Position numbers and translations under genes: made by a program. From Bacillus safensis (GTDB lineage Bacteria; Bacillota; Bacilli; Bacillales; Bacillaceae): DNA of 40,000 nt. The notes under the pieces were generated by a model. The model ran no database searches, was not told the origin of the DNA, and saw only the letters and a program-made list of their open reading frames with translations. Positions 3,385 through 16,347 of the stretch are shown piece after piece. The stretch spans positions 8,737 to 48,736 of the forward strand of contig BSBG01000008.1 in NCBI GenBank assembly GCA_030159235.1, in the 5' to 3' direction. The stretch's first letter is position 1. Each line of letters starts with the position of its first letter.

Positions 3385-4548
3385 TCACTTTGTTCTAAAC
3401 CGGAAACCAAACGTGATAAATTCATTAGGATTCAGATCATTAGAACAATATTGAACACAGACTTTTCCATCAGTACCGATTGCGGTCCTATGAATTTGTG
3501 GTGTATTGCCCTTACCTATGCTTGACGCTACTCCAATAAAGTGTGTCGATTGCATTGGTCTGAATCCTTCTTTTAAGGTAAAAACAACAGAGTCAAAACC
3601 AACTTTACCACCGGTAATTGATCCAACTATTTCAACAACACCTAGTGCATCTTTACTATATTGCACGGTGTGGGGGATACCATCGACAGAATTATATATT
3701 TTCCAACCGTTATCGAGCATCGAAACATCTACCTTGTTCCACTTCACCTCTTCATCCGCAGCAGACAGTAATCTACGCCAGCCCTGCCAGCCTAAATTTA
3801 AATCAAGATAATTTGTAAAAATGTTATTACGATAATCTACAGCAATGACCCATCCAAAAGTTCCCTTGTTATTATTATCAGCAGATGTAAAGTGATAAAA
3901 ACCTCGTGCAGATAAAGCAGACGGATTGTCTTGTACTCCAGCTGGTGAATAAAATGTACCGAATACTTTCCCTGCTTGAATAATTTTATCGAGTAAACTC
4001 TCTGTAGCTCCTACAGATACACGAACTCCACCCGTATCATTTGTAATTTTAATTAATTGGCTGCCATTCCATTTATTTAAATCTGATATATTTGGTAGAG
4101 GTGTCCACGTAATCGTAGTGTGACCAGAATTGTAGTAAAAACTGTACGCATTTCCCGCTATGTCTACTGCAAAGCCTGCCCCTATATTATTTTGGCCTAC
4201 TATTTGCATACCTCTCAGTGATAAATTTGACGGTGATGGAGAATCTTCGACTCCAGAAGCTGCGTAAAATGTACATGTCCCTTTATCCTTAATTGCATCA
4301 AATATTTTTGAATCAGCTGAGACATTGATGAGCTGCATACCGTTGTCTGCAGTTATTTTATAAATTTGTGATTCATTCCATTTTTTCTTTTCCGCATCTG
4401 AGGAATGTAAATTGACGTCATTTTTATGCATCAAGAGTTGCTCGATCACTCCCTGATCATTCTCAAGTAAAACCTTCACCATGTCATTGAATAAATCAGC
4501 ATGGGCTTTGTCGCTAACTTCAAATGACTTTGGTTTTTTTATCTCCAT
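3385..4548 (-). CDS. Tail fibre / receptor-binding protein paralog 2
   Basis: 387 aa. N-terminus is MEIKKPKSFEVSDKAHADLFNDMVKVLLENDQ. It has two internal KKWN.SQ.YKIT.DNG modules shared with paralog 3 and a distinct C-terminal domain. Confidence 0.8.
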   Translation of the reverse strand: MEIKKPKSFEVSDKAHADLFNDMVKVLLENDQGVIEQLLMHKNDVNLHSSDAEKKKWNESQIYKITADNGMQLINVSADSKIFDAIKDKGTCTFYAASGVEDSPSPSNLSLRGMQIVGQNNIGAGFAVDIAGNAYSFYYNSGHTTITWTPLPNISDLNKWNGSQLIKITNDTGGVRVSVGATESLLDKIIQAGKVFGTFYSPAGVQDNPSALSARGFYHFTSADNNNKGTFGWVIAVDYRNNIFTNYLDLNLGWQGWRRLLSAADEEVKWNKVDVSMLDNGWKIYNSVDGIPHTVQYSKDALGVVEIVGSITGGKVGFDSVVFTLKEGFRPMQSTHFIGVASSIGKGNTPQIHRTAIGTDGKVCVQYCSNDLNPNEFITFGFRFRTK

Positions 4549-4554
4549 TCCAAT

Positions 4555-4713
4555 CTACTCCTTCTTTCTAAAGTTTGGGTCAATTTCTTTTAATTGCTTT
4601 AAAGTCAGCAAGTGCTGCTGATATCCCTCATTCATTTCTTCCATTGAACAATCACCTAGTTCAATGGCTTGTTTGACTAGCTCAGGTGTCGCCCATTGAA
4701 AATATAATGCCAT
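4555..4713 (-). CDS. Small hypothetical protein (52 aa) in the xkdX position of the first fibre set
   Basis: Hand translation: MALYFQWATPELVKQAIELGDCSMEEMNEGYQQHLLTLKQLKEIDPNFRKKE. It is tightly packed between neighbours, and its last codons form the SD (AAGGAG) of the next gene. No clear XkdX motif. Confidence 0.5.
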   Translation of the reverse strand: MALYFQWATPELVKQAIELGDCSMEEMNEGYQQHLLTLKQLKEIDPNFRKKE

Positions 4714-4724
4714 GACCCAATAAT

Positions 4725-5054
4725 TCATGATTCACTCTCTCCTTTAATTAAAAGGATCTCATTTTTTAACGCCTTTAGTTCGTTTGTTAGAAGATCATAT
4801 TGGTGTTCAAGCTGTTTTCTTATCAGCTTTTCTTTCGCTACTTCTTGCGCTAGATAATCTAGTGGAAGAGGTGGTTGATACCTCGGATTGGCTTGGGATT
4901 CCTCCCACCATTTTTTCAATTCTTCTGCCGTTGGCTTTGGCACATCTAGATGCCACTCGTTTATATACGAACCGTCGCCGTCATTTCTTAGTTCAAAATC
5001 CTTTTGCGGGTCCGCATCAGGGTATTTATATTTAATCGCTTCATATAAAATCAT
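4725..5054 (-). CDS. xkdW: XkdW-like protein
   Basis: 109 aa. MILYEAIKYKYPDA...DFELRNDGDGSYI..W....P.PT.EEL..WWEE closely follows PBSX XkdW as recalled. Confidence 0.85.
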   Translation of the reverse strand: MILYEAIKYKYPDADPQKDFELRNDGDGSYINEWHLDVPKPTAEELKKWWEESQANPRYQPPLPLDYLAQEVAKEKLIRKQLEHQYDLLTNELKALKNEILLIKGESES

Positions 5055-5064
5055 CAGAATCCTC

Positions 5065-5943
5065 CTACACTCTCGGGAAATTTCGGCCGCCTAATTCCGT
5101 AATATCGAAATAGTTGTACCAGCCTGAATTATCAGATACGTAGCGGCTAACATCTCCGTCATATCCTACATACATATAAATTTCTAAATAATCCCCTTTA
5201 TTAGCCGGTACATTGGCAGCACCATAAATCCCCGTACTTAAGCTCAATGTATCAGATGGGCTTCCAGGACTTTGTCTATGGTGTGCGATATTTTTATATC
5301 TTTTTCCATTCAAATAGATTGATAATTCAAAGTTTGCATATCTTTGAAAACTGTCAATATAAACACCTGCATTTACTAAATACATCCCATTTTCGGGACA
5401 GATGAAGCGATTATTATTGATGTCAAAATTATTATGACTATCTTTTATCTTTCGATTAAAGAGGACTTTTTGATACTCTCCCTTGGTTAACAGCTGCTTA
5501 CCAGTTGTACCAATGTTCGTATGAAGAAAACCAGAGATTTTGTGCCACTCGGTCCAGCCAGAGGCCATATACCATTGTCTAAACCAAATACCAGTACTAG
5601 TAAAATAACTACTTGATTCATTACCGTTGCCATAATAATATTGTACAAAACGATACTCATTTATTTTTTCGTTCTTCACAAAACCTAATTTTGTAGGATA
5701 TCCGGTATCATTCGCTTGACTAATAGCCATCAACGTAATCCCTTTTGGATATTGCTCACCGCTGACTGATGCATCTTGAATGGCTTGATCACCTGTTAAT
5801 ATGAACAAACTTTCATTTGTGATTCCTTCTATCTGTGTACTGAGTGCATGATCATTCTCTACAAGTGTGTCGACCATCTGGTTAAACAAATTGGCATGGG
5901 CTTTGTCTGAGGTTTCAAACGGTAAAGGTGATTTTATGTCCAC
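5065..5943 (-). CDS. Tail fibre / receptor-binding protein paralog 1 (xkdV position) with a possible C1q/TNF-like jelly-roll C-terminal domain
   Basis: 292 aa. N-terminus is MDIKSPLPFETSDKAHANLFNQMVDTLVENDH. The C-terminus FICPENGMYLVNAGVYI...ELSIYLNGKRY...GDYLEIYMYV resembles the C1q-head pattern (inference). Confidence 0.75.
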   Translation of the reverse strand: MDIKSPLPFETSDKAHANLFNQMVDTLVENDHALSTQIEGITNESLFILTGDQAIQDASVSGEQYPKGITLMAISQANDTGYPTKLGFVKNEKINEYRFVQYYYGNGNESSSYFTSTGIWFRQWYMASGWTEWHKISGFLHTNIGTTGKQLLTKGEYQKVLFNRKIKDSHNNFDINNNRFICPENGMYLVNAGVYIDSFQRYANFELSIYLNGKRYKNIAHHRQSPGSPSDTLSLSTGIYGAANVPANKGDYLEIYMYVGYDGDVSRYVSDNSGWYNYFDITELGGRNFPRV

Positions 5944-10064: not shown

Positions 10065-10693
10065 TGCCCCGGCTGCTTAATATTGCGTTTGCTTCGTTTA
10101 ATCATCGCTGCTTTATTGGCATTCCAAATACGCCGCCATTTCGTACTGTCACCATAAAATCGGCCTGAAATGGCCCACAGAGTATCACCTTTTTTGACGG
10201 TGTACAATTTTGGTGGTGTTTTTGATGGCCTTTTCTTTTTGGTTTGTTTTGCTTTTTTCTTTCGTTTGATTTTCCTAGGTGATGCGGTTTTATATTCTTT
10301 TAACTCGATTGTAAATTCACGATCTCCAATATCATATGACCCTTCCTTGTGGGTGAAGCTTTCAATGCTGCATGTCATATTGATTTTTGTCCCAGTTACA
10401 ATCAACCGTACGGATTTCTTTGAACGCATCATTCGTTCAATTTTCGCTATCGCATTCTCTGGAGATGGAATGCTTTTATATTCAGCAATCGGCGAATATT
10501 TCTTAGGAAATAATGAGGTGAATGATACTTGTTTCGCCGATGGTACGTCAATAAAGGTCAGTTCTCCAAAAGAGGCGACCTTCACTGTTTCATTTTGTAC
10601 GTTATTTGTGATTTCGAGTTCGGATGGAAGGACAGGGAATCGCAACTTGTCCTTTCCTTGGGAAATCCACAGTTGATATACTGATTTACCCAT
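10025..10693 (-). CDS. xkdP: LysM-domain tail protein, XkdP-like
   Basis: C-terminal LysM motif [25 protein letters not shown].......[10 protein letters not shown]. Positioned right after the tape measure. Confidence 0.85.
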
Positions 10694-13600
10694 CGATCAC
10701 GACCCCCTTCGTTCCTGTATGAAGCTCTATTTCCAGTTCATCTACAAGCATTTGTTTAATTTTTTCGACAAGCGATTGCTGGTCTTGTCCATTATGAAAA
10801 TGCTGATCGCCATTGAATTGAATCGTGATTTGTTTATTACCTGACGATGTTGTACTGCCAGCAGACTGAGCTGAGGTGACTTGCTGCATCTGTGCTTCTG
10901 GTAAAGGAGCAGATGTATTTGATGGATCATATACTTGCATCCCAAGTGCCTTGGCTGCCTGCGTCAATAAATACCTTCCGCGAATGCCTCTTTCTTCGGG
11001 AATAATCCATTCACGTTTGTTTCCTTCACCAACTCTAGCAACCTGCTCCTGAGTAATCAATCCGCCATTTGCGTAGCCTTTATAAGGACCGCCTCTTCTC
11101 ATACTTCGTAATCCCGGCGTGTTGAAGACTGAACCATATCTTCCCTTAATGTAGTTAATGGCTGCTACGGCATTATGAATTGGGTTCCAAATGTCATTCA
11201 TGCCCTTGCCTTTATTGGCGTTAAACGTCGTTCCAATGGTTTGCATTAACCCTTTAGAAGGCGTTCCCTTCTTGGCGTTGGAATCCCATAAGTTGATCGC
11301 TCTCGGATCTCCATGTGACTCATTCTGCGCGATGGTCATCAGACCTGGAAGCCAGCTCATAGATGTGCCAGTTGCCATGATAGCCGCCATGAGCCATTGC
11401 TTCACATTAAGATTTGAAGCTCCCATGCCGCTGAAGGCTCCAATTAATGAACCAGCCTGATTCTCAGCAAATTTTTTCACATCAACTGAGTCGAGCCCTT
11501 TGACGACACCGATTGATGCAAATTTCCCAAGACTCATCATGACGCGTGAAGGGGAGTGAATGTCTAATTCCTCTCTAAACGCCTGCTCTACTTTCTTCGC
11601 CATTTCTTTGGCCGCCTGCGTGACTTCGCTTCCTTTGGAACGCATGCCGCTGTTAAAGGCGTCAATCATTCCTGAACCCCAGGTAGGTGATTCTTGTTTT
11701 GCTTGCAGGAAAGGTTGTTTGATATGTTGATCTACGTATAAGTTTGTGCCAGTTGATGTAGCATTTTGACCTGCTGCAAAACCACTCACCGTCCCAGTAC
11801 CCCAAGTTGGTGATGTTGTCATTACTTGTTGGTATGGCGCTTTTACACGACTTTGCAAGAAGCTGTCTGTTCCTGTTGGTGTCATCTGCTGACCATTTGC
11901 AAAGGCTGAAACCGTTTGTTGACCATACTTTCCTGAGTCTGATGTCAATTGACCAAAAGGCTGCTGAATATTCTTTTGTTTCCATTGATCAAGTGTAATC
12001 ACTTTTTGATTTAATCCTTGTTCAAAATCCTGATTAAATTGCTCGCCTATGCTGGAGGCTTGAATATTCCCAGTCATCGAGACCGAACCGTCTATTGAAC
12101 CGACAGAAGATGATGAAGCTACTGCTGTAGGAGCTGGAGAGCTTGATACTTGATTTCCAGCTGCTCCGCTTGGCATAACAGACATTCCAAGATGAGAAGC
12201 AGCCTGTGCAAGCAGCATCTTTCCGCGTCCTCGGTTATTTTGAGTTGGAATAACAAATTCGTTACCAGCTTCTCCGACCCATGATAAGGTTGGCTGGGTG
12301 ATATAGCCGCCTGTGGCTTTTTTATCAGGTTTAAAATCTTTTTTCCCGTTTTCTCGACCTTTTTCAAATTTTGCAAAATGCTTACCAACAATTTTTGCGC
12401 CTTTACTTTTAACTAAATCCCAAGTATCTCCTAAAATATTTTTACCCCAAGACTGTACACTATTCCACTTACTTGACCACCAGTCTTTATTAAATAGAGT
12501 AGAAGAAATAGTTGCTTTTGCAGTTGACCAAATTGTATTTGACTGTTTCCATTTACTTTTTGACCAACTTTTTACATCATCCCACTTCTCCCCCCACCAA
12601 TCTTTGTTAAAGACCGTTTCACGAACTTTTCCTTTGATAGAATTCCATATTTCAACGGCACCATCCCATTTTTCTTTGGTCCATTTTTTTACACTATCCC
12701 ATTTCTCTCCCCACCAATCTCCGTTAAAAACAGTCTCACTAAGTTTCCCCTTAATAGAATCCCATATTTCGACTGCACCATCCCATTTTTCTTGAGTCCA
12801 GTCCTTTACATTATCCCATTTCTCTCCCCACCAATCCCCGTTAAAAACAGTCTCACTAAGTTTCCCCTTAATAGAATCCCATATTTCGACTGCACTATCC
12901 CACTTTTCCTGAGTCCAGTCCTTGATAGCATCCCATTTTTCGCTCCACCATTCGCCATTAAAGACAGTAGATTCTAGAACTCCTGTTACATATCCAGCTT
13001 GTTCTGCCCACCATTCTGAATTAAACAGTGTATTCGATGCTGTAGTTTTTATATCTTCCCATTTTTCACTTAAGTTTCCTAAAGACGTTTCTGCAGAAGT
13101 TTTCACACTCCCCCACTTTTCACTCCACCATTCGCCATTAAATAAAGTGTTTGAAATATCCTCTTTAAGTTTTGAAGTATCAAATATCTCCCCTAGTTTT
13201 GACCCTCCAAAGGTGCCAGCCAATCCTCCAGCAACGCCACCAATTGCAGCCCCTACAACTGGTATCGGAATTAGAGCTTGGCCAATTGCAGCTCCACTAA
13301 CTCCTCCTGCAAGCCCACCAGAGAAACCACCTACTTTTTCCCCAACGTTTTCTTTCGTTGTCCCTATTAAATCTGTGGCACTTAATAAGTTCCCCAATAT
13401 AGGCACTCTTTTTAATAGCTTGCTACTTCCTCGACCTATATTTTTAAATACATCGCCTAACCCACTTAATCCTCCGGTACCTTTCATTAGACCTGCAAGC
13501 CCCGCAACAGAAGTTGCTATAGCCGCACCTTTCTTTAATCCACTAGGAATTTTCCCAATAAATTTCCCTGCATTTGTTTTCAGTTTTCCTAATCTACCTG

Positions 13601-14768
13601 GAGGTCTTCTATTTCTTTCAACTCTTGCAGTAGCCGTAGGATTTGTGGACTGTCTTTGCGAACGACCATTTCTATTTCTAGCCCTATCAGAACCACGTCT
13701 ACTTAAACCTCGAGCACAACAAGGACAACAGCTATTACGAAACAACCCTTTTCCACTTTGTTTATTTTGCTGCGTATTAGGAGTTGGATTTGTTGGTGTG
13801 TCTGTCGTTTGATTTTGAGCTGATGGGTTACTGTCGTTTTCGCTCGTTTGATTTTTCGGACCAAGGATCAAATCCAATCCTTTGTTCACCCATTTATCTA
13901 GATACTCCTCAGGGTTGATTTTAATCTTCTCACTAATTCGTCCGATCACTTCTTGCTTGTATTCGTCTATTTTCGTTTCAATCCAAGGGAGCGCCTTATC
14001 ATCCCAAAATTTTCTAGGACTTAATTGTTCCTTCAATTTGTCTGAAACGTCACCTGCATATTTTTCAATTTCTTTTAACGCCTTGTTTCCCAAATTCCCC
14101 AGCCAGCTCTGGTTGTTTTCATTCGTTTTCGCAGCAGCTGTTGCATTAGGTTTCTTTTTTATTTTCTTTTCTTCCACAACAGACTCTGCCTGATCTCGTT
14201 TTTTCAGCTTACTTTTTGCATTGTCTTGAACAGATACTCTGATTTCGTGTTTGGACATCGTCAAGCTTTTGAGTGTCTTTTTGATTCGTTGAATTGCAGC
14301 GGTGGCTTGGTCAACCATGTTTAATCTCATATAGTAGGTTCTGTTCATGAGCTGAAGGATTGATTTTTTGATCGTTGACATTTTCCCTGACAATTGATCG
14401 TTCAGTTTAAACGTCAGCATAACGGGGCTTGTCCCCACTTGTTTCAAACGATCTATGCTGGATTTAATGACATCCAGCCCCTTCGCTTGAATGGATATGA
14501 CCATATGATTCGGTAACATATTTAATTGATTTTTTAATGTTTTTAGATCACGATAGATTCCCTGATCTAGCCTCATGGAAAAAGCTGAAATTTTCCGTAG
14601 CGATAAAGTGAGATTTCTCAGCTTCTTTTCATCCATTTCTAGGCTTATTTTCACCGGTTTTCTAAATGGTTTGAGTTGCTTCTCAAACGTTCGAAACCTT
14701 TTTTGAATGCGTAGTAGTTTCTTCGACACCCGGTCTTCTAATTCAAAACGTGCTGTGAGTTTCGCCAA
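10686..14768 (-). CDS. xkdO: Tail tape measure protein with internal Trp-rich tandem repeats and a C-terminal lytic transglycosylase (SLT) domain; TTG start
   Basis: 1360 aa. Features are an N-terminal coiled coil, a Gly-rich hydrophobic core, FN(G/K)(E/D)WW..KW repeats, and an SLT block [13 protein letters not shown]....F........I..P..N..AAI.YI..RYG (about 11150-11400). It follows the chaperone genes. Confidence 0.92.
12390..13155 (-). repeat. In-frame tandem repeats within the tape measure; core period 117 bp (39 aa)
   Basis: Units starting at 12696 and 12813 are near-identical at the DNA level, with flanking units progressively diverged. About 6-7 copies of [38 protein letters not shown] are visible in the protein. 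Confidence 0.9.
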
Positions 14769-14957
14769 TTATTTACCTCCTTTCTTTGATTCTTTTTCTA
14801 ACATGTCTAGCTTGTAGCTGATGAGTCCGAATAGGAATGCTTTGAACGGTCTTGGTGATTCGTATAAATCAAGGAGTTCAGATGGGGAGTAGTGAAGCTC
14901 GTGCATGGCGTAATATAAAAACACCGCTTCTTTATCCCCATCTTTTATTAGTTTTTT
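14769..14957 (-). CDS. -1 frame extension of the tail assembly chaperone (G/GT-type frameshift product; often annotated as a separate tiny ORF)
   Basis: The -1 frame is open from the slippery site to a TAA abutting the tape-measure TTG start. It reads LIKDGDKEAVFLYYAMHELHYSPSELLDLYESPRPFKAFLFGLISYKLDMLEKESKKGGK (60 codons, hand-checked phase). Confidence 0.7.
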   Translation of the reverse strand, partial: KKLIKDGDKEAVFLYYAMHELHYSPSELLDLYESPRPFKAFLFGLISYKLDMLEKESKKGGK

Positions 14958-15388
14958 GCTGCTTCTTCTAAATCTTCAATTTCATCTTCAAATCCGTTGA
15001 TTTCAATGGCTTTGTTTAACCAGTTCGCATATTCACCGCCGACTGACAGGACACGTTTTGCTACTTCAACTGGATCTTGTGTGCTGTAGGCTTCTCTTAA
15101 TTCCTTTGAGCGGAAATCTGGGTAAATCGTTGATTCAATCGCAATACGTGCATAGAAGCGCTGACTGTCTAAGTCTTTCACACGTCCTCTGCCTTTGACA
15201 TTTTTGAAGGTCGTATTTTCTTTTTCCAGTTCATCAATCCGTTCAGTTGTAATGGCTTTAAAGACAAAAGGAATGACATTCCCTTTTTTATCAACAAAAC
15301 GCTTAGAAATCGGTACCTTCACTTCTTCCGCTTCTACTGTTTGTCCTGGCATAAAAAATGAAAGATCAAATGTTTGTTTTTCGCTCAT
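14948..15388 (-). CDS. xkdN: Phage tail assembly chaperone, XkdN-like
   Basis: 146 aa with an acidic C-terminus, positioned between the tube and tape measure genes. SD AAAGGGAG lies upstream. Confidence 0.85.
   Translation of the reverse strand: MSEKQTFDLSFFMPGQTVEAEEVKVPISKRFVDKKGNVIPFVFKAITTERIDELEKENTTFKNVKGRGRVKDLDSQRFYARIAIESTIYPDFRSKELREAYSTQDPVEVAKRVLSVGGEYANWLNKAIEINGFEDEIEDLEEAAKN
14951..14957 (-). promoter_or_regulatory. Programmed -1 ribosomal frameshift slippery heptamer A_AAA_AAC
   Basis: The plus strand reads gtttttt. On the minus strand the heptamer is in the correct X_XXY_YYZ phase, covering the last two sense codons of xkdN (AAA AAC TAA). An 8-bp GC-rich helix (GATGGGGA 14942-14935 with TCCCCATC 14888-14881) starts 8 nt downstream. 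Confidence 0.7.
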
Positions 15389-15420
15389 GTTTAAAAACTC
15401 CCTTTGTTATGTTTTTTTGA

Positions 15421-15453
15421 ATGCAAAAAAGCACATCCATTTTTTTGAATGTG
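15421..15453 (-). terminator. Candidate intrinsic terminator on the minus strand, about 35 nt upstream of the xkdN start
   Basis: Minus-strand RNA: CACAUUC-(8-nt loop)-GGAUGUG, then CUUUUUUG. The stem has a G.U pair on the minus strand but a C.A mismatch on the plus strand. Confidence 0.5.
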
Positions 15454-15471
15454 ATTTCCAATTTTTTCATG

Positions 15472-15477
15472 TATAAT
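15472..15477 (+). promoter_or_regulatory. Candidate -10 box (TATAAT) for the toxin mRNA; -35 poor
   Basis: A perfect TATAAT lies about 70 nt upstream of the toxin ATG, with a T/A-rich upstream region. The leader contains CCCC..GGGGG pairing that could sequester the SD. Confidence 0.4.
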
Positions 15478-15547
15478 CTTAATTGTACAATTGAACGGCT
15501 TGCTCAAGGGTGTCTGGCTCATCCCCGATAGGAAGGGGGTGATGCTC

Positions 15548-15631
15548 ATGTCAACATTTCAAGCGCTTATGTTAATGCTTGCATTCGGGTCATTTATTAT
15601 TACCCTGTTGACGTATATAGACAAAAAATAG
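15548..15631 (+). CDS. Type I toxin, holin-like toxin (Hol-Tox; BsrE/BsrH/TxpA-like) 27-aa hydrophobic peptide
   Basis: Hand translation: MSTFQALMLMLAFGSFIITLLTYIDKK. The N-terminal MSTF(Q/E)ALMLML..G signature matches Bacillus type I toxins as recalled. SD GGAAGGGGG lies 8 nt upstream. The gene is on the strand opposite to the whole tail operon. Confidence 0.75.
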   Translation: MSTFQALMLMLAFGSFIITLLTYIDKK

Positions 15632-15666
15632 ACTCCCCTTGAGCTGTGGAAGGTTAAAGGGAAGTC
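15620..15666 (-). terminator. Intrinsic terminator of the antisense (antitoxin) RNA, overlapping the toxin stop codon
   Basis: Minus-strand RNA: GACUUCCCUU-(16 nt)-AAGGGGAGUC, then UAUUUUUUG. The 10-bp stem has a G.U pair on the minus strand and a C.A mismatch on the plus strand. Confidence 0.65.
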
Positions 15667-15840
15667 TACCTAAAGAACCTATTCGAAAAGCCAGCCCCTT
15701 GAAGGGCCTTATTGTACATTGCCGGGATGTTAGCGCATCCTGGCTTCTTTTTATTTTATGCAAATTGCTTTGCATGTAAACATATTTTAATTAATCGAAT
15801 ACAAGACGTTACCAGACGAAATTAACACGGCTGTATTACA
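15622..15840 (-). ncRNA. Candidate cis-antisense antitoxin sRNA (about 210 nt), convergent with and overlapping the 3' part of the toxin mRNA
   Basis: Extended -10 TGCTATAAT on the minus strand (15854-15846), and the terminator at 15620-15666. The predicted overlap with the toxin mRNA is roughly 15623-15752, the architecture of txpA/RatA and bsrE/SR5 (established knowledge). Confidence 0.55.
15721..15757 (+). terminator. Intrinsic terminator of the toxin mRNA
   Basis: GCCGGGAUG-UUAGCG-CAUCCUGGC, then UUCUUUUUAUUUU. The stem contains a G.U pair on the plus strand that would be a C.A mismatch on the minus strand. Confidence 0.7.
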
Positions 15841-15903
15841 ACTGCATTATAGCATATTCGGTTTTTATTTAGCTAATAAATTAGCTAATTTCCTCCACTT
15901 TTC

Positions 15904-16347
15904 TTAGAAAGTACTCTTCAGCTTCTCAGGAAGATCAAAGTCTTCAAACGTGAAAGGGACCTCTTCCTCCAGCGCTTCCGAATCCACATCCAGTCCAGCG
16001 ATTTTAGCTGAATCAAAGTTGACATCAAATAATGTTACACGCTCAGTGCCTCGGCCTGATGACTTATCGTCAATTACAGCTTGAAGAGTGAAATATGGGT
16101 CTTCCCCTTTTTTCACATAGTTGAGCATTAATTGAACGAAACGTGACGTGACTTTATAGAATGTTGCCGTTCCGGTTCCGTTTGCCCCTGTTGTTTTATG
16201 ACCAGTCATTCGGCGGCCCATCACGTTGACTTCTGATTTGTTTTTCTCCACGTTTGCTTCAAACGTTTTAATAAAGGCAAGCTCCTCACCTTCTAAGAAA
16301 AGACGACCCTCTTTACCTGAAATCGTATTTTGCGCTTTAAAAGCCAT
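15904..16347 (-). CDS. xkdM: Contractile tail tube protein, XkdM-like
   Basis: 147 aa. MAFKAQNTISGKEGRLF..GEE.A..K.FEA.V.K.K.EV...G is typical of XkdM/DUF2001. It follows the sheath gene. Confidence 0.88.
   Translation of the reverse strand: MAFKAQNTISGKEGRLFLEGEELAFIKTFEANVEKNKSEVNVMGRRMTGHKTTGANGTGTATFYKVTSRFVQLMLNYVKKGEDPYFTLQAVIDDKSSGRGTERVTLFDVNFDSAKIAGLDVDSEALEEEVPFTFEDFDLPEKLKSTF

Follow-up and report, generated by a model that had tools for sequence, protein, structure and literature searches.

A probable bsrH/as-bsrH-type toxin-antitoxin cassette beside the tail tube gene of a PBSX-like prophage of the Bacillus pumilus group

Introduction

The closest described relative of the locus reported here is bsrH/as-bsrH, a type I toxin-antitoxin pair of the skin element of B. 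subtilis 168 (PMC2965217, PMC3531473). There, bsrH adjoins yqbM, the skin tail tube gene, and is recorded between yqdB and yqbM (PMC2965217); its toxin mRNA and antisense RNA are 285 and 200 nt long, and those of txpA/RatA are 270 and 222 nt (PMC6562991). Two further pairs, bsrE/SR5 of the P6 prophage-like region and bsrG/SR4 of SPbeta, have a BsrG-family mRNA fold, a sequestered Shine-Dalgarno sequence (SD) and a 3' overlap of 100-140 nt (PMC6562991); their antitoxins form several stem-loops, with a terminator at the toxin stop codon. SR5 acts solely by promoting decay, to which SR4 adds a block of translation through remodelling of the SD helix; BsrG is grouped with TxpA, in another toxin subgroup (PMC6562991). 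In the same review BsrE is only weakly toxic, and the toxicity of BsrH is called probable, not demonstrated (PMC6562991). Decay of bsrH mRNA is independent of RNase III (PMC6562991, PMC3531473).

The locus analysed here is an uncharacterised orthologue of the bsrH/as-bsrH system at its known position. It has the same peptide and mRNA families, the same layout and the same site as bsrH/as-bsrH of skin, and the lengths that we predict for its two RNAs, about 272 and 220 nt, are similar to those published. Like bsrE/SR5 and bsrG/SR4, it combines the BsrG-family fold and a sequestered SD with a multi-stem-loop antitoxin, predicted to end at the toxin stop codon. It differs from skin bsrH in its host, a member of the B. 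pumilus group, in having no adjoining txpA/RatA cassette, and in its toxin, which has 27 residues and ends in DKK where skin BsrH has 29; its antisense promoter region cannot be aligned with the B. subtilis-group loci save for the -10 motif. A literature search on type I toxin systems of B. pumilus found no relevant paper, and a search on ComI together with BsrH found nothing relevant.

Results

An island in the structural operon of a PBSX-like prophage

The window, which is the whole stretch of 40,000 nucleotides analysed, contains a structural operon (4725-25083) interrupted by one long gap:

15389-15903, gap of 515 bp between the XkdN-like chaperone gene and the tail tube gene
14948-15388, minus strand, XkdN-like chaperone gene (Pfam Phage_TAC_5)
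15904-16347, minus strand, tail tube gene (Pfam DUF2001)

An earlier note on this DNA, made from the letters of the sequence, had singled out the gap as an outlier and placed a type I toxin-antitoxin island in it. The gap does stand apart: all other junctions of the operon are 23 nt or less, or overlapping, and on inspection of the sequence every feature that the note had described is where it had put it. Its expectation of 0-25 nt for a normal junction does not carry over to this particular site, as the usual tube/chaperone gap in island-free Bacillus relatives is 74-94 nt.

Besides the tube and chaperone genes, the element carries XkdW-like, baseplate, terminase and sigma-like genes, the last of these in the position of Xpf. 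The host element is a PBSX-like prophage of the Bacillus pumilus group, and is probably a particle-producing PBSX-like element rather than a sigK-interrupting skin; a PBSX-like element of B. pumilus is lysis-competent and makes particles (PMC8347963). The island lies in a prophage-like element, beside the tail tube gene, as bsrH/as-bsrH does.

Among related tail tube/chaperone junctions that could be measured, 25 of 62 hold the island. Two more islands, on cut-off contigs, bring the set to 27 loci, all of which carry a full-length BsrG-family RNA and, behind an AGGGGG SD, a Hol_Tox-like ORF, both on the strand opposite to the operon; these loci share phylogeny, and the counts are not of independent events. 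A survey of PBSX-like relatives had been proposed in the earlier note. PBSX proper has no island and has a gap of 74-94 nt with an operon-strand terminator.

The PBP180 / B. pumilus 15.1 element is the same element with the same island, at 84% identity over 100% of the 515 bp. The PBP180 record has operon-strand ORFs annotated across the island, and neither that record nor the B. pumilus 15.1 paper (PMC8347963) mentions a toxin-antitoxin cassette. We considered minus-strand ORFs as genes (61 and 52 aa in the window; ORF18 and ORF19 in PBP180) and rejected them, because relatives have them at anything between 21 and 83 aa, with reading frames disrupted by single-base indels. Farther afield, the core of the island (15503-15763) has 72-88% identical stretches in SPbeta-like phages and 42 plasmids, the majority of the latter conjugative. 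These phage and plasmid Hol_Tox cassettes, including ComI of pBS32, share only the core in which mRNA and antisense RNA overlap; their flanks and contexts differ.

At the chaperone side of the gap there is a second minus-strand terminator, which went unmentioned in the earlier note and belongs to the operon:

15432-15453, minus strand, operon-strand terminator hairpin with a T run to about 15426 (terminator scan)

It sits about 38 nt upstream of the chaperone gene start. Among the island loci it is conserved with compensatory changes, and the minus strand is the more stable one in 10 of 15 distinct homologues (the plus strand in 4). Island-free PBSX-like loci have an equivalent hairpin and T run in the same place, and the stem CACTCTC...GAGAGTG is common to two island-free loci (L022, L023) and two island loci (L014, L019). 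Its presence in island-free loci led us to reject it as a part of the cassette. It is the ancestral intercistronic terminator between the tube and chaperone genes, and the insertion has its left border here.

The toxin gene is kept as a coding sequence

The plus strand of the gap, opposite to the operon, encodes a short peptide:

15531-15539, plus strand, SD GGAAGGGGG, ahead of the ATG at 15548
15548-15631, plus strand, toxin ORF of 27 codons plus TAG (15629-15631), product MSTFQALMLMLAFGSFIITLLTYIDKK

The strong SD and the 27-codon ORF are both at the positions claimed for them. Membership of the Hol_Tox family, which the earlier note had proposed, is borne out by a profile search: Pfam PF16935 Hol_Tox matches the peptide at 54 bits (E=1.5e-14; gathering cut-off 23.3 bits), with residues 1-27 aligned to positions 1-33 of the 34 in the profile. 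A comparison with BsrE, BsrH and TxpA had also been suggested, and the peptide proves to be identical at 25 of 27 residues (93%) to an NCBI protein named 'type I toxin-antitoxin system toxin BsrH'. MSTFQALMLMLAFGSFIITLLTYIDKK is also exactly the product of BPUM_2759 of B. pumilus SAFR-032, where it is labelled 'hypothetical protein'.

The ORF is under coding selection, as seen from a dN/dS of about 0.23 (55 pairs) against 1.43 in a control frame and from variable sites distributed 10/4/16 over the three codon positions. Its hydrophobic sequence and Hol_Tox match predict a single-helix membrane peptide, with a charged C-terminus formed by the KK tail. By analogy with its named relatives, this small hydrophobic peptide would be a toxin.

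The NCBIfam scan of the peptide found no model above its cut-off. The best match was the competence inhibitor ComI (NF052249; 29.1 bits, E=6e-07, cut-off 55), and the PepG1 type I toxin model (NF041589) reached 14.1 bits against a cut-off of 70. By these scores the peptide is related to ComI, but is not an equivalog. The ComI match raises the question of whether the product might instead be an accessory membrane peptide, either a PBSX-type holin-like lysis helper or a ComI-like competence inhibitor, whose level an antisense RNA merely tunes. The name of the Pfam family, 'putative holin-like toxin', the weak toxicity of BsrE (PMC6562991) and the fact that the B. pumilus element is a lysis-competent particle producer (PMC8347963) would all suit such a role. 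Yet the gene runs against the late operon, under a promoter and with a terminator of its own, in contrast to the lysis genes at the operon end. PBSX proper functions without the cassette, and the same cassette recurs in SPbeta-like phages and many plasmids, in unrelated contexts; the ComI score, moreover, is under the cut-off. An accessory peptide therefore seems decidedly improbable to us, and we continue to treat the ORF as a type I toxin gene.

The toxin mRNA belongs to the BsrG family and sequesters its SD

The signals assigned to the toxin transcript are as follows:

15472-15477, plus strand, probable toxin -10 box TATAAT, with a predicted start at about 15484
15484-15757, plus strand, predicted toxin mRNA of the BsrG family, about 272 nt
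15519-15542, plus strand, SD-sequestering hairpin (Rfam structure line and MFE fold)
15721-15757, plus strand, intrinsic terminator of the toxin mRNA, stem 15721-15744 and T run to 15757 (terminator scan)

The Rfam model BsrG (RF01412), which describes the toxin mRNA of bsrG, bsrE and bsrH, matches the plus strand at 15486-15743 with 158.5 bits (gathering score 55 bits) over the full model, positions 1-259. Position 1 of the model is the UACAAU hexamer at 15486, which pairs with UUGUA at 15713-15717 and for that reason must be transcribed; a start at about 15484 would include it. The -10 box of the toxin retains the pattern G-TA-A/C-AAT in all aligned islands, and the predicted mRNA folds with a z-score of -3.9.

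The pairing of a leader CCCC with the GGGGG of the SD, noticed earlier by eye, is confirmed: the Rfam BsrG model has it as its SD-sequestering hairpin, and the SD lies in a stem both in the Rfam alignment and in the MFE fold. In 14 of the 15 distinct homologues compared, the plus strand gives the more stable version of this hairpin; G.U pairs number 16 there and 2 on the minus strand. It is also retained when the 3' region of the mRNA is forced single-stranded; with that region blocked the SD is predicted to stay paired, in a slightly longer helix.

Our terminator scan recovered the plus-strand terminator that had been proposed at 15721-15757. Covariation is unable to separate the two strands in the overlap region. 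Hairpin stability favours the plus strand at this terminator in 14 of the 15 distinct homologues, never the minus strand, and the plus strand carries 23 G.U pairs to 2 for the minus strand.

A predicted antisense RNA converges on the toxin gene

On the operon strand, we assigned the following features to a predicted antisense RNA or to its possible promoters:

15854-15846, minus strand, extended -10 TGCTATAAT, with a predicted start at about 15839 (pattern search)
15620-15839, minus strand, predicted antitoxin RNA (as-bsrH/SR5-like), about 220 nt
15629-15668, minus strand, antitoxin terminator stem, with a U6 run templated by 15623-15628 (sequence and conservation)
15693-15709, minus strand, internal hairpin GGCCCUUCAAGGGGCU of the antitoxin RNA (strand asymmetry)
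15758-15775, minus strand, palindrome ATGCAAA-N4-TTTGCAT just beyond the overlap (MFE and centroid folds)
15780-15753, minus strand, proximal promoter-like site TTTACA-16-TAAAAT, an alternative start for an RNA of about 125 nt

The predicted RNA is complementary to the toxin mRNA over about 15620-15755, or about 135 nt; the sizes first suggested, an RNA of ~210 nt and an overlap of ~130 nt, shift slightly with this new prediction. In silico, it is a convergent cis-antisense gene with its own promoter and terminator and with an overlap within the 100-140 nt of the known pairs, and comparison with the 27 related loci supports both the convergent 3'-overlap layout and the antisense promoter and terminator. 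In relatives, the predicted antitoxin RNAs are 193-246 nt long. The RNA is predicted to fold into the short hairpin at 15758-15775, the complement of the toxin terminator, a GGCCC hairpin and its own terminator.

The weight of the extended -10 comes from its conservation in relatives, since its count in the window is within chance: the motif proposed earlier is present at 15854-15846, but TGNTATAAT has 3 matches in the 40 kb of the window alone versus 2.0 expected. Of 21 distinct relatives, 15 have the pattern TGnTAnA[AC]T on the operon strand and 1 has it on the other strand; shuffled sequences gave a mean of 1.3 and a maximum of 5. It forms a conserved patch amid DNA that cannot otherwise be aligned.

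The minus-strand terminator, given as 15620-15666 in the earlier note, is present and conserved, with its stem at 15629-15668. Its U6 run is templated by the two Lys codons of the toxin (15623-15628), and the toxin stop codon forms the base of the stem; AAAAATAGAC within it is invariant in 23 islands. Our terminator scan missed it because of its 16-nt loop. The earlier note had argued that both terminators carry G.U pairs on their own strand that become C.A mismatches on the other, as expected of hairpins selected on one strand. That argument stands for the toxin terminator. For the antisense terminator, the consensus does have U.G pairs within the stem where the plus strand would mismatch, but the energy of the whole hairpin favours plus in 8 homologues and minus in 10; the plus strand adopts an alternative inner stem.

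The internal hairpin at 15693-15709 is the best evidence for selection acting on a minus-strand RNA, as judged from sequence comparison. Of 15 distinct homologues, 13 have the more stable hairpin on the minus strand; that strand has 17 G.U pairs and the plus strand 0, and a G.U closing pair is retained in 15 of 16 sequences.

These asymmetries bear on whether the plus-strand RNA could function by itself, as an orphan toxin gene or a BsrG-family regulatory RNA, with the minus-strand signals arising as by-products of operon read-through and of the structure of the toxin mRNA. The lack of net strand asymmetry at the antisense terminator (8 vs 10) would fit this, as would an Rfam search of the minus strand in which no model matched. 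It would leave unexplained the extended -10, found in unalignable DNA at 15/21 versus 1 on the other strand, and the G.U pairs of the 15693-15709 hairpin, all of them on the minus strand; and an antisense partner is present in every characterised relative (PMC6562991, PMC2965217). We hold a plus-strand RNA without a partner to be highly improbable, and prefer the reading of a toxin gene paired with an antisense RNA.

The palindrome at 15758-15775 is likely to be the 5' stem-loop of the antitoxin RNA, or else an operator. B. pumilus-group loci conserve it apart from a variable loop, and it shows no strand asymmetry. A conserved antisense 5' hairpin as a general feature was dropped: among the loci covered, such a hairpin is significant in some relatives (L002, L006, L007, L012 and L013), marginal in L003, and not significant in the window (z=0.02) or in L001, L004, L009 and L010.

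The palindrome also matters for where the antisense RNA starts. If the proximal site at 15780-15753 were the promoter, the same cassette would make an antitoxin RNA of about 125 nt, wholly complementary to the toxin mRNA, and the distal extended -10 would serve some other purpose or yield a longer, minor species. The proximal site is the best promoter-scan match of the region (10/12 positions), and the B. pumilus group retains its TTTACA and TAnAAT, the third position of the -10 being free (TAAAAT, TACAAT, TAGAAT, TATAAT) as in a true -10 box. However, it overlaps both the palindrome and the tail of the toxin terminator, and its conservation could be explained by this overlap, given that the same conserved block holds the toxin terminator U tract. 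A start at about 15746 would also omit the palindrome, which corresponds to the first of four stem-loops described for this antitoxin class (PMC2965217), and would give an RNA shorter than the published antitoxins, which are 163-222 nt (PMC6562991). Finally, the minus-strand cDNA of B. subtilis starts about 115 nt past the toxin 3' end (PMC2965217), and the TTTACA is absent from the B. subtilis-group islands. We judge the proximal start rather unlikely and favour the distal one, at about 15839.

Discussion

Taken together, we conclude with a rough probability of 0.87 that the gap holds one bsrH/as-bsrH-type (bsrE/SR5-like) type I toxin-antitoxin cassette with a predicted antisense RNA. The family membership of the peptide and mRNA, the coding selection, the conservation of promoter and terminator motifs and the presence or absence of the island among relatives are direct observations. 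The cassette would have been inserted between the stop codon of the tail tube gene and the ancestral tube/chaperone terminator. A constitutive-looking plus-strand promoter (-10 at 15472-15477) would produce a highly structured mRNA of about 272 nt that holds its own SD in a hairpin and encodes a 27-residue, single-helix membrane peptide of the Hol_Tox family. From the opposite side, the minus-strand extended -10 (15854-15846) would launch a non-coding RNA of about 220 nt, ending at a terminator for which the toxin's Lys-Lys codons supply the template of the U tract. At their 3' ends, about 135 nt of the two RNAs would pair without a mismatch.

By analogy with the five characterised B. subtilis systems, loop-loop contacts probably initiate a duplex that targets the toxin mRNA for degradation, and the antitoxin would leave the ribosome-binding site uncovered. 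The route of decay is not safely transferable to this locus, because BsrE is weakly toxic and decay of bsrH mRNA is independent of RNase III. We infer that the cassette probably serves to stabilise the prophage-like element.

It is also conceivable that the cassette is coupled to the late operon and is not a passive passenger, so that toxin expression and tail-gene stoichiometry are tied to induction of the particle. Late-operon transcription would then run antisense through the entire toxin gene and serve, during induction, as an additional antitoxin or as a source of transcriptional interference. The cassette, being upstream of the ancestral terminator, would add a second operon-strand terminator, with further attenuation before the chaperone and tape-measure genes. 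We regard such coupling as improbable.

The cassette reading improves the annotation and does not amount to a novel type of system. With it, a gene pair labelled 'hypothetical protein' in SAFR-032 receives a name, and the doubtful operon-strand ORFs of PBP180 are replaced. BsrH-type cassettes occupy one fixed site, from the tube stop codon to the ancestral terminator, across many PBSX/skin-like elements in the B. subtilis and B. pumilus groups alike, and are absent from PBSX proper. The Lys-Lys-stop codons of the toxin would have a second use in the antitoxin terminator, as its U tract and the base of its stem, a dual coding that would constrain both partners. Those who engineer or delete such particle-producing elements of the B. 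pumilus group should expect a toxin gene at this site.

A BsrG-family toxin gene lies within the tail operon

The window carries a PBSX-like element on the minus strand, with genes for an amidase, XkdW-like and baseplate proteins, the tape measure, an XkdN-like chaperone, the tail tube, the sheath and the terminase; a gene for a sigma-like protein occupies the position of PBSX Xpf, and host genes follow from ~28 kb onward. The earlier note had pointed to a gap at 15389-15903 as exceptional. Indeed, this stretch holds no long ORF, and elsewhere in the structural operon (4725-25083) neighbouring genes are separated by at most 23 nt or overlap. The gap and its flanks are laid out as follows.

14948-15388, minus: chaperone gene (XkdN-like), left flank of the gap
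15432-15453, minus: operon-strand hairpin just upstream of the chaperone gene, absent from the earlier note
15531-15539, plus: Shine-Dalgarno (SD) sequence GGAAGGGGG
15548-15631, plus: 27-codon toxin ORF, from ATG at 15548 to stop codon TAG at 15629-15631
15629-15668, minus: predicted antisense terminator hairpin, followed by U6
15721-15757, plus: toxin terminator, stem 15721-15744 and T run to 15757
15854-15846, minus: extended -10 TGCTATAAT
15904-16347, minus: tail tube gene, right flank of the gap

The SD, the ORF, both terminators and the extended -10 had all been proposed from the sequence, together with a fit to the Hol_Tox family (BsrE/BsrH/TxpA), and each of these features is indeed there. 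The peptide matches Pfam Hol_Tox at 54 bits (E=1.5e-14; cut-off 23.3 bits), is identical at every residue to BPUM_2759, a hypothetical protein in the annotation of B. pumilus SAFR-032, and differs at 2 positions from a 27-aa protein that NCBI names 'type I toxin-antitoxin system toxin BsrH'. Searching NCBIfam yielded only sub-threshold matches, to ComI (29.1 bits against a cut-off of 55) and PepG1; since the best of these, though below the cut-off, is ComI, a plasmid-borne competence inhibitor, this suggests that the peptide family includes ComI as a diverged member. The sole Rfam match in the window is to RF01412 (BsrG), at 15486-15743 on the plus strand (158.5 bits, gathering score 55 bits, model positions 1-259), and it takes in the SD-sequestering helix and the long-range closing helices.

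By its sequence, the toxin ORF is a real gene. Across 11 distinct versions of 27 codons, dN averages 0.129 and dS 0.554 (ratio 0.23, with 1.43 for a control frame), and variable sites fall 10/4/16 by codon position.

Elsewhere in the element, the tape-measure protein (10686-14768, minus, 1360 aa) contains tandem repeats of ~40 aa with FNGEWWxEKW motifs. Between its gene and that of the chaperone, starting 23 nt past the chaperone stop codon, lies a 51-aa ORF (14769-14924, minus) with no match in Pfam or NCBIfam, which we take to be in the position of PBSX xkzB.

The cassette is inserted ahead of an ancestral terminator

A search with the tube protein, limited to one genome per species, retrieved 71 related loci, the closest from B. 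altitudinis, B. safensis, B. pumilus and allies.

Length of the tube/chaperone junction gap in related loci
Clostridia and other distant relatives: 0-24 nt
Other bacilli (Listeria, Oceanobacillus and similar): 56-103 nt
Bacillus, PBSX-proper type: 74-94 nt
B. licheniformis group, island-free (L022, L023): 124 and 166 nt
B. pumilus and B. subtilis groups, island-bearing: 428-1245 nt

The island is present at 25 of the 62 measurable junctions, and two more contigs end inside it. All 27 islands carry a full-length BsrG-family RNA opposite the operon strand and a Hol_Tox-like ORF behind an AGGGGG SD.

All island-free Bacillus loci retain, shortly ahead of the chaperone gene, a strong operon-strand hairpin with its T run, and most other island-free bacilli retrieved also keep a terminator-like hairpin and T run between the two genes (gaps of loci L022-L052). 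We infer that the hairpin at 15432-15453 is the ancestral intercistronic terminator, because it lies in the same place, folds more stably on the minus strand (10 homologues versus 4), and in B. subtilis-group islands has the stem sequence of the island-free L022 and L023. The insertion point of the cassette lies between the tube stop codon and this terminator, which now stands downstream of the cassette. Such an intercistronic terminator may set the ratio of the sheath and tube proteins to later tail proteins.

Several islands depart from the usual form. In L012 (Bacillus sp. 179-C3.3, island 4445-4975), an ATG-to-AGG change removes the toxin start codon, the SD stem carries a one-base insertion, and the sole remaining in-frame ATG abuts the SD; this toxin may be attenuated or inactivated, in an island otherwise 93% identical. 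The larger island of L021 (B. swezeyi, 4445-5607) holds two tandem BsrG-family cassettes. That of L033 (B. rugosus, 4445-5689) encodes the exact BsrH peptide and a 69-aa ORF (5264-5473, minus in the locus) whose product is hydrophobic at the N-terminus and very basic at the C-terminus, resembling YonT-type toxins as described in publication. Two contigs each carry two PBSX-like elements ~45-50 kb apart, L003 and L009 on B. safensis FO-36b contig5 and L005 and L044 on B. pumilus 36R contig00015; all of these elements carry a cassette of their own, and the toxins encoded are different variants.

An antisense RNA gene is predicted on the operon strand

The antisense gene is predicted from four observations: a promoter, a terminator, a strand-specific hairpin and the non-coding character of the strand. 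Although most relatives cannot be aligned between the toxin terminator and the tube gene, the extended -10 motif TGnTAnA[AC]T occurs there on the operon strand in 15 of 21 distinct regions and on the other strand in 1 (shuffled control: mean 1.3, maximum 5 in 1000); counted in the window alone, its frequency is not beyond chance. A second promoter-like site, proximal (15780-15753) and kept across the B. pumilus group, could instead give an RNA of ~125 nt, and we consider this start unlikely. From the extended -10, the predicted RNA would run from ~15839 to ~15620 on the minus strand (~220 nt; 193-246 nt in relatives) and fold into a short hairpin (15758-15775), the complement of the toxin terminator, a GGCCC hairpin and the terminator.

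The terminator block AAAAATAGAC...TCTA is nearly invariant among relatives. The earlier note had argued from G.U pairs that each terminator is selected on one strand. This holds for the toxin terminator, which is more stable on the plus strand in 14 of 15 distinct homologues (G.U pairs 23 versus 2). For the predicted antisense terminator, U.G pairs within the stem of its consensus fold would become A.C mismatches on the plus strand, but whole-hairpin energy shows no asymmetry between strands. At 15693-15709, the minus strand forms the more stable hairpin in 13/15 distinct homologues, with 17 G.U pairs on that strand and none on the plus strand; the toxin terminator and the SD hairpin (plus strand in 14/15, G.U pairs 16 versus 2) are biased the opposite way. 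Operon-strand ORFs across the island range from 21 to 83 aa among relatives, with frequent single-base indels.

A 20-bp palindrome, TTAGCTAAT-AA-ATTAGCTAA (15870-15889), lies directly past the tube stop codon, centred ~40 nt upstream of the predicted RNA start. Among the relatives, only L001 and L003 share it; it could be an operator.

Toxin and predicted antitoxin share bases

The two predicted RNAs overlap over ~135 nt (~15620-15755), including the last three toxin codons (TAT GAC AAA... through the Lys-Lys pair) and the stop; the overlap ends ~80 nt short of the SD. Read on the minus strand, the Lys-Lys codons (15623-15628) supply the U tract of the predicted antisense terminator and the stop codon forms the base of its stem, so the KK tail and antitoxin termination would use the same bases.

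The antitoxins characterised in B. subtilis bind the toxin mRNA at its 3' end and promote its decay; SR4 alone also blocks translation, and for bsrH mRNA the dependence is on RNase J1, not RNase III (PMC6562991, PMC3531473). When we folded the toxin mRNA with the overlap forced single-stranded, the SD was predicted to stay paired, in a slightly longer helix. Given this prediction and the B. subtilis precedents, the antitoxin would act mainly by promoting decay of the toxin mRNA.

Relation to known systems

In skin, bsrH lies between yqdB (txpA) and the tail tube gene yqbM and has an antisense partner (PMC2965217). In the window the same system occupies this site, with the txpA/RatA neighbour missing. 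Along its full length the island shares 84% identity with PBP180, a published defective phage of B. pumilus, whose record (KC847113, 1503-1942) spans the island with ORF18 and ORF19 in operon orientation and leaves the toxin ORF unannotated. ORF18 and ORF19 are probably spurious, because such operon-strand ORFs are not conserved among relatives. The paper on the PBSX-like particle of B. pumilus 15.1 does not mention the cassette (PMC8347963). The cassette core (15503-15763) also occurs in SPbeta-like phages and 42 Bacillus-type plasmids, in agreement with the view that such cassettes travel on mobile elements (PMC6562991).

The original reading as a type I toxin-antitoxin island is supported; the system is a member of a known family at a known position, and curated Pfam and Rfam models recognise it. 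The analysis gives the B. pumilus-group element a corrected annotation, defines where the cassette was inserted and the pattern of presence and absence among relatives, lends strand-specific support to the predicted antisense RNA, and points out the dual use of the bases encoding the KK tail and stop codon in the predicted antisense terminator.
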